Assembly: GCA_049970895.1 (NCBI GenBank)
Contig: JBMFMB010000010.1
Coordinates: forward strand, 1 to 52,690
DNA: 52,690 nt
From: Candidatus Bathyarchaeia archaeon
GTDB lineage: Archaea > Thermoproteota > Bathyarchaeia > Bathyarchaeales > Bathycorpusculaceae
Reading direction: 5' to 3'
Position 1 is the stretch's first letter, and each line of letters opens with the position of its first letter. The notes under the pieces are model-generated. The model saw only the letters and a list, made by a program, of their open reading frames with translations. It did no database searches and had not been told where the DNA came from. The position numbers and the translations under genes were made by a program. Positions 3,497 through 35,222 of the stretch are shown here, piece after piece.

Positions 3497-3793
3497 CTAA
3501 AGCTTCACTATTTGGGCGTGCGGAACACCCTCTATGTTTAGAATAGCCTCCGGATGGACATAGCCCTTTTCAACAGCCTTTTTCACGACGTTTTTCCCAA
3601 CCATATTTACAATTGTTGAGTTTTCTATCATGGCTATGGCTTCTTCAAGCTCCACCTCCACGCCTTTATAGAATTCTTCCGTTACATGGAAGACGATTTT
3701 TCCCTCACGCAATGTTTTTCCAAGAATTTCGGCGTCGCAAATGGACAACAATACATTGTTGCCGATTTTCCGGATTTTCATGTAGCACTTCAA
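3497..3793 (-). CDS. DUF424 family protein
   Basis: CDAEILGK...FYKG...NMVG...GVPHAQ pattern; usual neighbour of aIF-2beta. Confidence 0.88.
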   Translation of the reverse strand: MKCYMKIRKIGNNVLLSICDAEILGKTLREGKIVFHVTEEFYKGVEVELEEAIAMIENSTIVNMVGKNVVKKAVEKGYVHPEAILNIEGVPHAQIVKL

Positions 3794-29080: not shown

Positions 29081-29853
29081 TTAGGTTCTCCTTTTCTGCC
29101 TAACCCATTGGAGGATCTGTCGGATTAATCTTGTCCCCTCTTCTGAGGAAAATAATGGTAGATCCCAATTTTCGGTGATTTTCCATCTGGTGACGCTTTG
29201 ATTTGCAATCCTTTTTTGGTATGACTCTTTATAAATGAGTATGCCCCTTCTCTGCCATGGTGGTGTTTTAGCCAAATTTACGCCATGTTTAAAAAGTGTT
29301 TCATGGAGTTCCTCGGTTTTCATGCCCTCAATTTTTTGGCTATTTCTGATGGCTTGTAGCCCATTTTTCTGAAAAGCCAATAAGCATAAGCATTATTGTG
29401 GTTTCTCCAAGCATTTGTTTGCCTCCAACTCAAATACTCCAATATTTTTTCATCGTTTGGGGTGACTATTATACGGGAGTCGAAGGCTGCAACAACTTTT
29501 TTGCCGAAAAACTTCTGCAGTTGGAGGGAGAATGCTGCTGAGACAAGGCTGGGTATAACCGAGTCTATCTTTTCAATTCTGCCGTTAAATGGTGCCTTGC
29601 CATCAAAAAGTATGTTTAATTCATCGCTGACTATGTAAACCAGTGTTGGGCTGAATCCCTTTTCAAGTAATATTTTGCCGGAATGGACATGGCATTGGGC
29701 AAACCTTTCGTCGAAGGGTTTCTCTGCGCCTATGTGCTCTGCAAGGGCGCGAAACTTCCAGCCGTCAAGCCTCATGAAAAATGGTGTTTCCAATGGAACA
29801 GAGGCTTTTGAGAAAATTTCGCTTTTAACCCAGCCTTTAAAACTTTCAGCCAT
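29081..29853 (-). pseudogene. tRNA(His) guanylyltransferase Thg1-like protein split by a single frameshift
   Basis: RLDG, SDE, FDSR and WRQ in 29320-29853; LHETLF-GVN-PPWQRRG in 29081-29380; frame change at an A6 run near 29332-29337. Confidence 0.85.
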
Positions 29854-30809: not shown

Positions 30810-30887
30810 TGGTGGGGCTGCCCGGATTTGAACCGGGGTCCCGAGCGCCCGAGGCTCAGAGCCTAGACCAAGCTAGCCGACAGCCCC
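30810..30887 (-). tRNA. tRNA-Pro(CGG), intron-less, CCA encoded
   Basis: Reverse complement folds as a cloverleaf: acceptor GGGGCTG/CAGCCCC, anticodon arm TGAGC-CTCGGGC-GCTCG, T arm CCCGG-TTCAAAT-CCGGG, then ACCA. Confidence 0.95.
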
Positions 30888-30980
30888 AATTTTAGTTTTT
30901 GTGTAGGCTTAATAAAGGTGTTTTCTTAACCTTTAAACTCTTATCCGGGCATTAACTATCTACTGCTGAAAGGGGAGGGT

Positions 30981-33185
30981 TTGGAAGGCTTGTCCAGTCA
31001 GCATCAGCGTGTGCGGGGAATCCGAGTCTTGAAGGCTGTTTCTTCAGCTGTTAGGCTCAACATTTTAAGCGCCCTTTTCAATCACGGACAGCTTTCTTAC
31101 ACTGAGCTCATGAGCCTTTTGAAGATGAATCCCAGCCGTGATGCCGGACGTTTCGCCTATCATTTGAAGTTTTTGCTTAAGGCTGGTTTGATTGAGGCTG
31201 ATGTGGAGTCCAAGAAGTACGGCTTAACAGATTTGGGTAAGATGGTTATTGACGTGGCTGAGAAGATTGAAAAGCGAAGTTTAAAGGCGCAGAGAATCCT
31301 TGTTAGGACGTCTCGCTTCACCCTTGAAGAGTTTGACGCCACAAAAATTGCCAACAACCTCATTAAGGAGGCTAGTGTACCCCCGGAACTCGCCCAGAAA
31401 ATAGCCAAGGAGGCTGAAAAACGCCTCCTAAAGGCTAGGACACGCTATTTAACGGCTCCATTGATAAGGGAGGTTGTCAACGGAATACTAATCGAAAAGG
31501 GGTTGGAGGAGCACCGCCACAAACTCACCCGTTTGGGGCTGCCGGTGCATGATGTTTCAGCTTATCTACTAAAAGGCAAAGCCTTGGCTGATGCATCTTC
31601 TGCTTGCGAAGAGTTTGGAAGAAACGTCCTTGAGGAGTATACGCTCTTAAATGTGCTGCCAAGGGACATTGCAGACGCATACCTTTCGGGGGAAATCCAC
31701 CTACACGATTTAGGCTCTTGGATTTTGAAGCCAAGCGATGTAATTCACGATTTAAGATTCTTCATTAAAAATGGCATAAGCCCAAATCCCGCAAATATAT
31801 CCCTACCCTTCGTAAAACCTCCAAGAAGCCTTAGTTCCACCTTAAACCTAACTTTCAACGCTCTTTTGCGAGCATCTAAGGAAACTGATGGAACACAAGT
31901 GCTTGAGTACTTCAATGTCTTTTTGGCTCCTTTTCTGAAAGGCTTGGATGCAGCCGCCGTCGAGGAGGCTTTGAGGCTTTTTATTATCGGTGTTAGCCAT
32001 CATGTTAATGCTTCCATAAATCTTGAGTTGACGGTTCCAAAGTTTTTGGCTGATAAGCCAGCTGTTGGCTCCGCTGGTGGTTGTTATGGGGATTTCATCG
32101 ATGAAAGCCAGCTTCTAGCCACACTTGTGTTGGAGGTTTTTGAGGAAGAAAGCCTCGAAAAGCCGCTGTTAAATCCAAGACTCATAGTTAAGATTCGCCC
32201 AGAAACCTTCACAGACAATAAGGCTGCTGACATCCTTATTAAGGCGCACCGTCTAGCCTCTGAGAAAGGCATACCATACTTTGCAAATCTTTCAGGCGAA
32301 GATGAACAGTTTTCAGTTTTCTGCCCGTCTGGAAGCATCCTAAATGCAGACTTTAAAGAAGACTGGGAAATCGACACGGTCCGCACTGGCGTTTTAGGAC
32401 TGGTAACCGTTAACTTGCCAAGAATAGCATACGAATGCGGCAAGGATAAGGAAAAGCTATTTGCACTTTTAAGGGAAAGATTTGAAATGGCTGTAAGAGC
32501 CTTAGAAATAAAGTACAAAGCCTTAAAACAGCGTGGAAAGAATTTTCTCCCATTTTTGACCCATTCAGCTAATGGCGACCAATATTTCAGAGTTGAAAAT
32601 GCTGCACGTCTAATAAATCTGGTTGGGTTAAGGGAAGCCTCAGAAACCCTCAGCGGAAAAAGCTTATACGAGGACGAAAGCCCGCAAAGGCTTGCTTTTG
32701 AAATCGTGAAAAAGGTTTTAGAATTCATACCAAAAAGTGGAAGACGCGAGAGAAGGCTACTTCCATCCGCTCTGCATTATACTGATGTTTCTGAAAGGCT
32801 GGCCAAACAGGACATCGAAAGGTTCGGTGTCGCAAGAGTGCGCTTCCACGGAACAAGGGAAAAACCGTACTATTCAACATATAGCCGAATAAACCTCCAA
32901 AACTGGGAAAAAACATCAAGAATTTTAGCTGTTGAGAAAGAACTTTATGCATCACTCGTCGGTGGAAACTTAACAGTTCTAGAGCTGGAACAGGCCGAAT
33001 ACGCACCAGAAGCACTTTTCTCATTTACTAAGAAGCTTGTTGAAGCCTACAAGCTAGGATTTTTCACGTATAATCGCTGCTTAACTTACTGCAGTCAGTG
33101 CCACAAAACATGGTTTGGCACGCTACAAAAATGTCCCATATGCGGTTCCGTTGGCACGCTAACAGCCTTCACACGCTTTCAGTAA
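30981..33185 (+). CDS. Winged-HTH + ATP-cone + degenerate class III ribonucleotide reductase (NrdD-like) fusion protein
   Basis: ArsR-like N-terminus (RLNIL...LSYTELM...FAYHLKFL...YGLTDLG), ATP-cone (VRTSRFTLEEFD...LIREVV), NrdD motifs (HLHDL, FNVFLAPF, TVNLPRIA, C-terminal CxxC/CxxC) but no RxxGY. Confidence 0.88.
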   Translation: MEGLSSQHQRVRGIRVLKAVSSAVRLNILSALFNHGQLSYTELMSLLKMNPSRDAGRFAYHLKFLLKAGLIEADVESKKYGLTDLGKMVIDVAEKIEKRSLKAQRILVRTSRFTLEEFDATKIANNLIKEASVPPELAQKIAKEAEKRLLKARTRYLTAPLIREVVNGILIEKGLEEHRHKLTRLGLPVHDVSAYLLKGKALADASSACEEFGRNVLEEYTLLNVLPRDIADAYLSGEIHLHDLGSWILKPSDVIHDLRFFIKNGISPNPANISLPFVKPPRSLSSTLNLTFNALLRASKETDGTQVLEYFNVFLAPFLKGLDAAAVEEALRLFIIGVSHHVNASINLELTVPKFLADKPAVGSAGGCYGDFIDESQLLATLVLEVFEEESLEKPLLNPRLIVKIRPETFTDNKAADILIKAHRLASEKGIPYFANLSGEDEQFSVFCPSGSILNADFKEDWEIDTVRTGVLGLVTVNLPRIAYECGKDKEKLFALLRERFEMAVRALEIKYKALKQRGKNFLPFLTHSANGDQYFRVENAARLINLVGLREASETLSGKSLYEDESPQRLAFEIVKKVLEFIPKSGRRERRLLPSALHYTDVSERLAKQDIERFGVARVRFHGTREKPYYSTYSRINLQNWEKTSRILAVEKELYASLVGGNLTVLELEQAEYAPEALFSFTKKLVEAYKLGFFTYNRCLTYCSQCHKTWFGTLQKCPICGSVGTLTAFTRFQ

Positions 33186-33191
33186 CCTCTG

Positions 33192-34124
<933 letters not shown>

Positions 34125-34304: not shown

Positions 34305-34787
34305 GTGAGCGAGCATATGAGCGAAAGCGAAACAATGCTTTATGTTTCAAAAATTAAGGATGGAACAGTCATAGATCACATAACTGGCGGGCACGCTTTA
34401 GACGTTATTAAGATTTTGGGGATAACGGGTAAGGAGAAGCGCATAATCACCATAGCCATAAACGTTCCAAGCAGACGGTTTAAGGTTAAGGACATTGTCA
34501 AAATTGAGGGAAGGGAACTCAAACCAGAAGAGGTTCACAAAATCGCCCTTTTGGCACCCCATGCAACAATAAACATCATCAGAAACTACAACGTTGTGGA
34601 GAAGCAGCGGGTTAAGCTTCCAAACGTTATTGAGGGCATTCTTAAGTGTGCTAATCCGGCTTGTATAAGCAACAGCAACGAGCCGGTCCAATCAAAATTT
34701 TATGTTAAAAGTGAGGAACCTCTAATCTTGAAGTGCCATTATTGCGGCTATATCATGGAGAAAAGCGACGTTTTGAAGCAATTTTAA
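34305..34787 (+). CDS. pyrI: Aspartate carbamoyltransferase regulatory subunit
   Basis: GTVIDHI, KDIVKIE, CANPACIS and CHYC motifs. Confidence 0.97.
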   Translation: MSEHMSESETMLYVSKIKDGTVIDHITGGHALDVIKILGITGKEKRIITIAINVPSRRFKVKDIVKIEGRELKPEEVHKIALLAPHATINIIRNYNVVEKQRVKLPNVIEGILKCANPACISNSNEPVQSKFYVKSEEPLILKCHYCGYIMEKSDVLKQF

Positions 34788-34913: not shown

Positions 34914-35222
34914 ATGATTGAAATAATAGCCATAACATTATGGGTTGGCTTCACCGCCTACGCCATATGGTATTTCACATCAGCAAAACATTATGCGCCC
35001 CTAACACCAAGTGAGGCGGGGCTTCTTTGGAAGATTCATAAGCAAACAGCAAAGTGCGACTCAAAAAGATGGCGGGAAATTCGCCGCGGCAGAAAAATTG
35101 TAGGTTTTGCTTGTGAATGTGGTTTTAGGTATATGCAGAAGCGCCCAATAGTGGCAGGCACACCACAGCCGGTTGTAAAGCAGTCTGCGACGACAATTTA
35201 TCAGAAACTGCATAGGGCATAA
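34914..35222 (+). CDS. Hypothetical membrane-anchored protein with a possible metal-binding site
   Basis: N-terminal TM helix followed by H...C...CECG; GGTGA Shine-Dalgarno-like sequence upstream. Confidence 0.65.
   Translation: MIEIIAITLWVGFTAYAIWYFTSAKHYAPLTPSEAGLLWKIHKQTAKCDSKRWREIRRGRKIVGFACECGFRYMQKRPIVAGTPQPVVKQSATTIYQKLHRA

Follow-up and report, generated by a model that had tools for sequence, protein, structure and literature searches.

The gene at positions 30,981 to 33,185 (forward strand) of a 52,690-nucleotide stretch of DNA from a Candidatus Bathyarchaeia archaeon (contig JBMFMB010000010.1; hereafter the window) encodes what its sequence identifies as a catalytically dead class III ribonucleotide reductase (RNR) fused to a winged helix-turn-helix (wHTH) domain. 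With moderate confidence, this non-catalytic descendant of the class III RNR is read here as a one-component, nucleotide-responsive DNA-binding regulator; within that reading, we infer the binding to DNA, the nature of the ligand, which way the regulation runs and what its targets are. A proposal of this kind had been made from the letters of the DNA alone (the original prediction), and the present analysis followed it up.

The open reading frame (ORF) is uninterrupted and encodes 734 amino acids (aa) when read from the TTG at 30981, with the stop codon included in the coordinates 30981..33185. A GGAGG sequence lies ahead of it at 30974-30978. The true start is probably the TTG at 30990 (731 aa) or the GTG at 31011 (724 aa), because the relatives begin with MSSQHQ or MRGIRVLK. 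All the domains lie on the forward strand. The N-terminus is occupied by an ArsR-like wHTH (residues 16-91; 31026..31253), with a putative recognition helix in DAGRFAYHLKFL, which scores 31.0 bits with Pfam DUF7347 (cut-off 27.6) and 26.9 bits with HTH_5 (cut-off 22). It is modelled with helices at 23-35, 40-46 and 51-67 and strands at 71-74 and 79-82, and the predicted local distance difference test score (pLDDT) is 84-92 over residues 11-90. It is followed by an ATP-cone (residues 104-178; 31290..31514) of the type 'VRTS...F...KI / TAPLIRE.VN', and by a linker (residues 179-235; 31515..31685) that carries the near-invariant RH.LTRLGLPV.DV and stands where active NrdD has its NxN substrate flap. 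The alpha/beta barrel of NrdD, without its catalytic set, covers residues 236-690 (31686..33050), and the zinc ribbon CSQC...CPIC (C704, C707, C718 and C721) lies at 33090..33143. The four cysteines of this ribbon are invariant in both deep alignments and are kept in 120/121 sequences of the close family. The conserved C-terminal tail, GSVGTLTAFTRFQ (33144..33182), stands where the glycyl-radical domain would be; in the model it forms a beta strand (727-730) that follows those of the zinc-ribbon region. The Pfam NRDD profile matches residues 211-728 over profile positions 15-534 of 562 (224.3 bits, cut-off 26.2, E 4e-66). The NCBIfam equivalog models of NrdD all remain below their cut-offs, the best being TIGR02487 with 246.7 versus 326.35 bits, and the other NrdD models, including those of PRK, are far under theirs.

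The roles of Cys416, Cys171, Gly711/Tyr712, Glu581, the HxHD motif, the NxN flap and loop 2 are defined for Prevotella copri (P. copri) NrdD in the parts of PMC11226230 drawn on here. The comparison set was made of the genome's own active NrdD and 27 active representatives on one side, and 78 representatives of the wHTH class on the other. The column of the first active-site cysteine (Cys171 of P. copri NrdD) is occupied by D253 in the alignment of the window copy (31737..31739). This column holds cysteine in 27/27 active and in 0/78 wHTH-class sequences, and in the close family (n = 121) it holds Glu in 116, Asp in four and Ser in one. HxHD is kept by its letters in the window copy but not in most close relatives, position 243 being Gly in 79, Asp in 15, Ser in 11, Glu in eight, Asn in seven and Tyr in one of the 121 sequences, and the histidine of the motif is lost in the wHTH class. 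The finger loop (residues 441-470; 32301..32390) is degenerate and presents S452 (32334-32336) in the column of the thiyl cysteine, which is cysteine in 27/27 active sequences versus two of the 78 wHTH-class representatives. In the close family this column is unconserved (F50, C33, S17, Y13 and G6 among 121), yet it is a cysteine in 33 sequences. The cysteine of the 'FCPSG' stretch of the window copy is C448, a position at which 116/121 relatives have serine. Both asparagines of the NxN flap are found in 27/27 active sequences and are absent or variable in the wHTH class. Loop 2 (RGGQ), which joins the specificity site to the active site, was located on the alignment by means of a profile search of solved structures, and the alignment places the site from which it is missing at 31998..32012. 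ARGGQ is present in 10/10 active versus 0/11 wHTH sequences compared, and the segment before SINLE is eight residues shorter in the window copy. For the specificity site itself no claim is made, as Asn298 of P. copri NrdD was probably placed and Glu290 fell on no glutamate.

The end of the protein is as telling as its active site. The chain stops 13 residues past the last zinc-binding cysteine, and the active NrdD of the same genome has its glycine 12 residues past that cysteine. The active enzymes run on into R-[IV]-T-G-Y, with the glycine and the tyrosine each found in 27/27 sequences. No R..G[YFW] string is supplied by any forward frame from 33100 to 33500, and none is found in the last 60 aa of the 121 close relatives. 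The string occurs by chance in four of 77 wHTH representatives, all four of which lack the first cysteine. In the close family (n = 121), the would-be glycine column is Ser in 76, Gly in 35, Asp in four, Asn in three and Thr in two, and the 12-residue tail past the zinc ribbon is conserved among the relatives as G-[SA]-[TV]-[SG]-T-L-T-x-F-x-R-[FY]. Many wHTH representatives at 30-45% identity keep a full-length homologue of the glycyl domain in which the glycine is replaced (YSRSLAKY versus YSRITGY). Given that so many distant relatives keep this glycine-less domain at full length, the order of events read from the alignments is that the glycine was lost first and the tail was shortened later in the clade of the window.

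Altogether, the wHTH class has lost 37 positions with a conservation of 90% or more in the active enzymes, and the NLPR, GG and zinc-ribbon motifs are kept. Eight class-specific conserved positions have been newly gained, six of them in the cone or the linker; being few and mostly in these two regions, they give no indication of a new active site. The original prediction had described a single intact ORF with an ArsR-like wHTH, an ATP-cone, an NrdD barrel and a zinc ribbon, which is borne out by the ORF and by Pfam (with the cone just below threshold). It had also placed the end of the chain where NrdD has RxxGY, with no other frame supplying the motif, and had noted a replaced cysteine after HxHD, a missing RGGQ loop before SINLE and a changed thiyl finger loop; each of these observations held, and the loss of the catalytic glycine and cysteines was confirmed by the alignment with the 27 active sequences. 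The concern that orthologs might retain RxxGY, in which case this copy would be merely truncated, is answered by its retention in 0/121.

The fold has survived these losses in the model. An AlphaFold2 model built from an alignment of 41 sequences (mean pLDDT 87.6) has the fold of a class III RNR, superposing on P. copri NrdD (8p2s_B) with a VIA-align Z of 33.1 and a root-mean-square deviation of 2.6 A over 511 residues, with a Foldseek E of 5e-25; the next folds, those of class I RNRs and of pyruvate formate-lyase, have a Z of about 20. Prediction of a homodimer from two copies of residues 205-700 gave a score of 0.67 versus 0.00 for the best control, with at least 79% of the contacts agreeing between runs and a partner pLDDT of at least 86. 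In the calibration of this score, the mark was reached by 20/30 solved pairs and 1/23 single chains. Helices 284-299 and 324-341, the same as in the enzyme dimer, make up the predicted interface. The pass may come from a memory of solved class III RNR dimers, and it shows likeness and not binding.

The architecture is a trait of a family. A word-indexed search listed 120 relatives of 59-100% identity and 577-756 aa, 117 of them at 710-756 aa. All those listed carry NRDD and nearly all also have the wHTH domain, in some cases with an ATP-cone listed beside it. Those with names are nearly all Bathyarchaeia, one being labelled Nitrososphaerota. Their public labels are mostly 'anaerobic ribonucleoside-triphosphate reductase', which is the mislabelling that had been foreseen, or else 'ArsR family transcriptional regulator'. 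When 1.84 billion representatives were searched exhaustively and without a profile, 1954 matches were obtained; among the best 150, which were analysed, the 77 that bear a wHTH and have 560 aa or more all lack the first cysteine. In a FastTree tree made from the cone and barrel columns, leaving out the wHTH and the tail, all 78 wHTH sequences group together in a single clade of 79 rows, which has an SH-like support of 98 and lies within the active archaeal NrdDs. By this phylogeny, the wHTH class is of single origin and descends from archaeal NrdDs of the RITGY type. Twelve NrdD-like sequences (P0185, P0187, P0216, P0229, P0211, P0212, P0227, P0230, P0238, P0257, P0186 and P0222) have no wHTH by profile hidden Markov model (HMM) and have lost some or all of the catalytic residues. 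Most of them lie inside active clades, and P0186 and P0222 branch beside the wHTH clade. The twelve may represent fragments, intermediates or separate losses of catalysis.

Selection was measured by the Nei-Gojobori method on 20 independent pairs of 81-97% protein identity, with synonymous divergence (dS) of about 0.7-0.8. Of 91 gene copies, 89 are intact, and the two with a stop or an X (L074 and L103) were dropped. The median ratio of nonsynonymous to synonymous divergence (dN/dS, omega) is 0.095 for the whole gene, 0.032 for the wHTH, 0.037 for the cone, 0.084 for the linker and 0.095-0.132 for the barrel with the tail. This shows that the gene is under purifying selection, strongest on the wHTH and the cone. 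Across the deep family, the mean frequency of the top residue is 0.65 in the cone, 0.59 in the linker, 0.50 in the wHTH and 0.37-0.39 in the barrel.

The cone is the part of the protein where a ligand would be expected to bind. PF03477 is among the precomputed domains of many relatives, and a purpose-built cone HMM matched 136/152 sequences. V108, R109, F118, I123 and R163 are invariant in the cone, and Arg109, Arg163, Arg179 and Arg184 are the invariant arginines of the cone and linker. The columns of the canonical Lys-Arg pair hold Thr in 62 and Ser in 73 of the 78 wHTH-class sequences, and among the 27 nearest active NrdDs Thr in 22 and Ser in 21. The dead family did not invent its cone motifs: V-R-T-S..F..KI and T-A-P-L-I-R-E-x-V-N are also those of the nearest active NrdDs.

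The distribution of the protein was surveyed in 401 sampled genomes of the phylum, with the N-terminal 230 residues (wHTH, cone and linker) as query. This module is found in 288/401 genomes, and in the matches listed it is followed by an open frame of 600-790 aa. It is present in 56/56 genomes of the Nitrosopumilus-type family (f15), 17/17 of f23, 24/24 of f28 and 4/4 of f7, and in none of f24 (0/23), f25 (0/12) or f30 (0/15). With the genome's own NrdG as query (E <= 1e-15), the search for an NrdG-like activase came up empty in f15 (0/56), f23 (0/17) and f7 (0/4), and f28 gave 4/24. By these counts, the protein is independent of NrdG and of class III chemistry. An f15 member has relatives, at 86-97% identity, that bear the name Nitrosopumilus, N. 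adriaticus among them; Nitrosopumilus are aerobic ammonia oxidisers and abundant marine nitrifiers. In a deeper branch (Nitrososphaerota / Nitrososphaeria, Aigarchaeota, Caldarchaeales), many members have the Pfam HTH and cone with NRDD undetected. Cluster labels of the ESM Atlas hint at Asgard and DPANN members, which are leads only.

The genome of the window has a class III RNR of the ordinary kind. A cluster nrdR-nrdD-nrdG lies on contig C8 (C8:3211-7416; L001 and L003), in which NrdR (161 bits, cut-off 124.65) is directly upstream and NrdG (TIGR02495, 196.5 bits) directly follows the active nrdD. This active NrdD has a KRDG-type cone, the cysteine in GPYCVGW, the finger loop SMCCRL, the zinc ribbon and YSRVVGYLRP. 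A second RNR, of the PF02867 type, lies on contig C5. A palindrome resembling an NrdR box (CACTAcatTTAGTG) is found upstream of the genome's nrdR. NrdR (TIGR00244 above cut-off) occurs in 25/401 genomes, all in the family of the window, a restriction that hints at acquisition of the whole nrdR-nrdD-nrdG cluster from outside. The active NrdD also carries an intein-like insertion of about 310 residues exactly at loop 2, after VGFQ. Insertions of 196-534 residues occur at the same spot in 9/27 active archaeal representatives (P0174-P0268) and in 0/78 sequences of the dead class, in which the segment has 3-21 residues.

In the window, the gene is followed by pyrB, for the catalytic chain of aspartate carbamoyltransferase (33192..34118, minus strand; TIGR00670, 399.4 bits), which is convergent and ends 6 bp from the stop of the ORF, and then by pyrI, for the regulatory chain (34305..34787, plus strand; TIGR00240, 197.9 bits), which is divergent from pyrB. 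On the other side lies a tRNA-Pro (CGG) gene (30810..30887, minus strand), a divergent neighbour that is conserved in the relatives. The promoter region common to the two (30888..30980, plus strand) contains two conserved AT-rich blocks (TTAATAAAGGTGTTTTCTTAACCTTTAAAC), which from their sequence are read as BRE/TATA elements; in the 12 orthologous upstream regions inspected, of 73 extracted, the block recurs. The inverted AT-rich blocks between the tRNA-Pro and the gene form an imperfect palindrome, TAAAGGT-N9-ACCTTTA. Bathyarchaeia neighbourhoods were examined in 80 loci returned from more than 584 matching stretches, and pyrB is convergent within 500 bp downstream in 74/76 of the loci with at least 1 kb of room. 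In loci from other families, pyrB or pyrI adjoins the gene in 10/20, seven of these ten being outside the class, and three arrangements are met: pyrB convergent with pyrI beyond, pyrI convergent, and pyrB divergent upstream.

In the Nitrosopumilus-type family, the neighbour is an RNR gene. It is next downstream on the same strand in 22/23 loci from seven of the eight sampled genera, with gaps of 205-448 bp; the script count of 21 was corrected for a cross-hit artefact in L118 (gap 205 bp). The downstream RNR has 884 aa, with PF02867 at 478 bits and an ATP-cone. About 90-100 nt upstream of its start, before a TATA-like TTTATA, an inverted repeat GGTGTCAA-N5-TTGAC is found in 21/22 loci, and it is by position alone that this repeat is linked to the dead RNR protein. 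In G203 (L156, C1:953500-958700, about 3590-3700, minus strand), a near-identical second copy of about 90 nt of the RNR promoter, including the inverted repeat, was considered as a regulon target and rejected, because it is a duplication of the promoter segment behind which no ORF reaches 90 aa. In L117-L120 and L136-L155, which belong to the Nitrosopumilus type and to a second family, genes for a thiolase and for a ChsH2-type OB-fold/Zn-ribbon protein lie ahead of the dead RNR gene on the same strand.

Two further genes of the window deserve mention. A Cys-rich ORF of 102 aa (34914-35222, plus strand) lies just after pyrI; it has no Pfam or NCBIfam match and is found at the same place in 24/80 Bathyarchaeia loci by tblastn. 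A Thg1-like gene (tRNA-His guanylyltransferase; 29081-29853, minus strand) has an ORF of 177 aa that scores 85.1 bits with Pfam over profile positions 9-130 of 130. It overlaps an ORF of 99 aa in another frame without a family match, which could reflect a frameshift, a split gene or chance; the two together would have about the length of a Thg1.

These surveys also settle what had been said of the surroundings of the gene. The distance of 6 bp between the ORF end at 33185 and the stop of pyrB is as described, nrdG is not adjacent and lies beside the real nrdD on another contig, a separate functional RNR is present in the genome (nrdD-nrdG on C8 and the PF02867 RNR on C5), and the checks on purifying selection and on spread of the architecture turned out positive, with an omega of 0.095 and the N-terminal module in 288/401 genomes. 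The link to nucleotide metabolism has become stronger, with the pyrB/pyrI adjacency rearranged in distant families and the RNR adjacency in Nitrosopumilus-type genomes. The idea of an archaeal NrdR analogue suits most of the phylum, where NrdR occurs in 25/401 genomes only, and fails as a replacement of NrdR in the present genome, where a true NrdR lies upstream of nrdD-nrdG. It is unlikely that the protein serves in general as a partner that regulates the active class III RNR, since it is present in 56/56 versus 0/56 for NrdG in f15, and in 17/17 versus 0/17 in f23.

In the mechanism proposed for a nucleotide-sensing regulator, the barrel, deprived of radical chemistry, would still dimerise through the two helices of the enzyme and provide a rigid scaffold. 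The ATP-cone would bind an adenine nucleotide, which may be ATP, deoxy-ATP (dATP) or a related polyphosphate ligand, and its occupancy would alter how the two ArsR-like wHTH domains at the N-termini are positioned or oligomerised. The shifted pair would then bind differently at the promoters of nucleotide-supply genes, the candidate targets being pyrB/pyrI in this lineage of Bathyarchaeia and the RNR gene in Nitrosopumilus-type archaea. A bolder version, in which a dead RNR dimer is the phylum-wide archaeal counterpart of NrdR, reading ATP/dATP through the cone and acting as a master switch that sets the transcription of the RNR in ammonia oxidisers and of pyrBI in Bathyarchaeia, is put forward tentatively, and we lean somewhat against it.

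Several observations weigh against a nucleotide-responsive DNA-binding regulator. On the side of DNA binding, the best matches of the wHTH among solved structures are the ArsR-family proteins HlyU and PagR at an E of about 0.06, which is a weak likeness, and the NCBIfam metalloregulator model NF033788 gives 29.2 bits, under its cut-off of 55. On the side of the ligand, PF03477 matches residues 108-175 of the window copy with 24.3 bits, narrowly missing the gathering score of 25.8. The canonical Lys-Arg pair, which belongs to the K-R-D-G roof hairpin and holds the phosphates, is replaced by Thr110-Ser111 and, therefore, the ligand of the cone is uncertain; we know of no test of ATP/dATP binding by a cone of this Thr-Ser type. 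The barrel, with an omega of about 0.1, is constrained in a manner that suggests some further role beyond holding two heads together. On the side of the targets, pyrB is convergent and shares no promoter with the gene, and the tRNA-Pro is also conserved, so that the synteny may in part be plain inheritance. The search for an operator in Bathyarchaeia, by k-mer counts and visual inspection of 78 upstream and 31 pyrB-pyrI intergenic regions, gave only BRE/TATA-like blocks and the tRNA as conserved elements and no definable operator; the two sets had no k-mers in common beyond TATA-like words, and a palindrome at the pyrI promoter of the window is unconserved. The inverted repeat of the f15 RNR promoters has four matches in the genome of the window versus 1.1 expected, none of them near the RNR, the pyr genes or the gene itself. 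It is no more frequent than a reversed control across five closed genomes, and upstream of the regulator gene itself there is no copy with up to three mismatches outside coding sequence. Furthermore, the presence of NrdR beside nrdD-nrdG means that control of the genome's own RNR may not need the dead protein.

Some of these points would suit other explanations. wHTH domains can also mediate protein contacts, and the protein could be a nucleotide sensor that acts on proteins, namely aspartate carbamoyltransferase or the active RNR, with the wHTH as a module for protein contact or localisation. Such a sensor would agree with the pyrB/pyrI and RNR neighbourhoods, with the real constraint on the barrel and with the failure to find an operator in the window's genome. 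It is nonetheless considered quite unlikely, as the wHTH is heavily constrained (omega 0.032) and scores above the Pfam cut-offs for DNA-binding models of the ArsR type, and as the active class III enzyme cannot be a general partner of a protein that is present where no NrdG-like gene was found. A regulator or architectural protein that binds DNA in response to a non-nucleotide signal, or with no ligand at all, would use the cone and barrel as an oligomerisation platform and would owe its neighbourhoods to inherited synteny. The Thr-Ser replacement in the cone, the degenerate substrate site, loop 2 and flap, and the equally conserved tRNA-Pro neighbour speak for it. This is also judged unlikely, because the cone is the most conserved domain (0.65 versus 0.37-0.39 in the barrel), keeps the invariant Arg109, Arg163, Arg179 and Arg184, and has the motifs of the nearest active NrdDs, in which an allosteric cone is expected; moreover, the gene has come into two distinct nucleotide-metabolism neighbourhoods in separate lineages.

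That the protein is still an enzyme, receiving its radical in trans or performing a new non-radical chemistry in the old barrel, appears very improbable. The fold is intact (Z 33), the NLPR, GG and zinc-ribbon motifs are kept and 33/121 close relatives have a cysteine in the thiyl column, but every element that holds the substrate or the radical is lost or variable, the barrel has no new conserved constellation and several whole families that have the protein yielded no activase-like gene. The family is also present in relatives named Nitrosopumilus, which are aerobes. Oxygen destroys glycyl radicals, as stated in the portion of PMC3019208 that was consulted. A decaying pseudogene, or an nrdD truncated by an assembly artefact, could account for the stop or X in 2/91 gene copies, and to this we give practically no credence: the 120 listed relatives have the same architecture, 117 of them at 710-756 aa, omega is 0.095, R..G[YFW] occurs in 0/121 and the module is present in 288/401 genomes. 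Mere truncation was rejected on the family-wide short end, the purifying selection and the wide distribution.

To our knowledge, the control of RNR and pyrimidine genes in archaea is largely unknown. If the protein is a nucleotide-sensing regulator, it would be a testable candidate for that missing control, in a phylum where the family is found in 288/401 genomes and NrdR in 25/401, and it would be a case in which an enzyme has come to sense the pathway it once served. The annotation error has consequences of its own, since genome surveys in which 'anaerobic RNR' genes are counted as a sign of anaerobic capacity would be misled by these proteins. The family also amounts to a natural experiment on the class III scaffold, revealing that the cone, the dimer helices, NLPR and the zinc ribbon are kept once catalysis is removed.

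Compared with NrdD, the protein has the same 10-stranded barrel fold, N-terminal ATP-cone, C-terminal zinc ribbon and predicted dimer helices, but it lacks the glycyl-radical domain, both active-site cysteines, the NxN flap and the RGGQ loop 2; it also has an extra N-terminal wHTH, remains below the NCBIfam cut-offs and is present in whole families without an NrdG-like gene. Its N-terminal 90 residues resemble the ArsR/SmtB proteins (HlyU, PagR), matching HTH_5 and aligning to HlyU across the helix-turn-helix and the wing. ArsR/SmtB proteins are stand-alone metal or redox sensors of about 100-120 aa, whereas the wHTH described here heads a protein of 730 aa. In PyrR, PurR, BirA and PutA, the part that senses is a retained enzyme fold, and the regulator acts on the pathway of that enzyme; it is this general principle of an enzyme-derived effector domain that the window protein may share. 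We know of no regulator of that kind built on a ribonucleotide reductase. No description of the wHTH-cone-dead-NrdD family, nor of an RNR-built regulator, was found in the literature searched, and the sequence sets behind RNR phylogenies may include or exclude the family; term look-ups in works on RNR phylogeny or RNR databases (PMC9531940, PMC9669993, PMC4390871, PMC3019208 and PMC2795772) gave no description of it in the passages that they reached. The closest likeness in working is to NrdR, the bacterial repressor of RNR operons made of a zinc ribbon and an ATP-cone. Both join a module of DNA-binding type to an ATP-cone, and the nrdR gene often adjoins RNR genes, as the gene of the dead RNR family does in 22/23 Nitrosopumilus-type loci. 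In NrdR, the nucleotide occupancy of the cone controls DNA binding, according to the sections of PMC9110341 and PMC12176259 used here, and the same logic is proposed by analogy for the window protein. Unlike NrdR, the window protein has a wHTH and not a zinc ribbon at its N-terminus, together with a whole dead RNR barrel, and it has no match to TIGR00244 (NrdR) at E <= 1. This fits a protein that may be NrdR-like in its working without being a member of the NrdR family, and that descends from NrdD while failing the catalytic features by which NrdD is defined.

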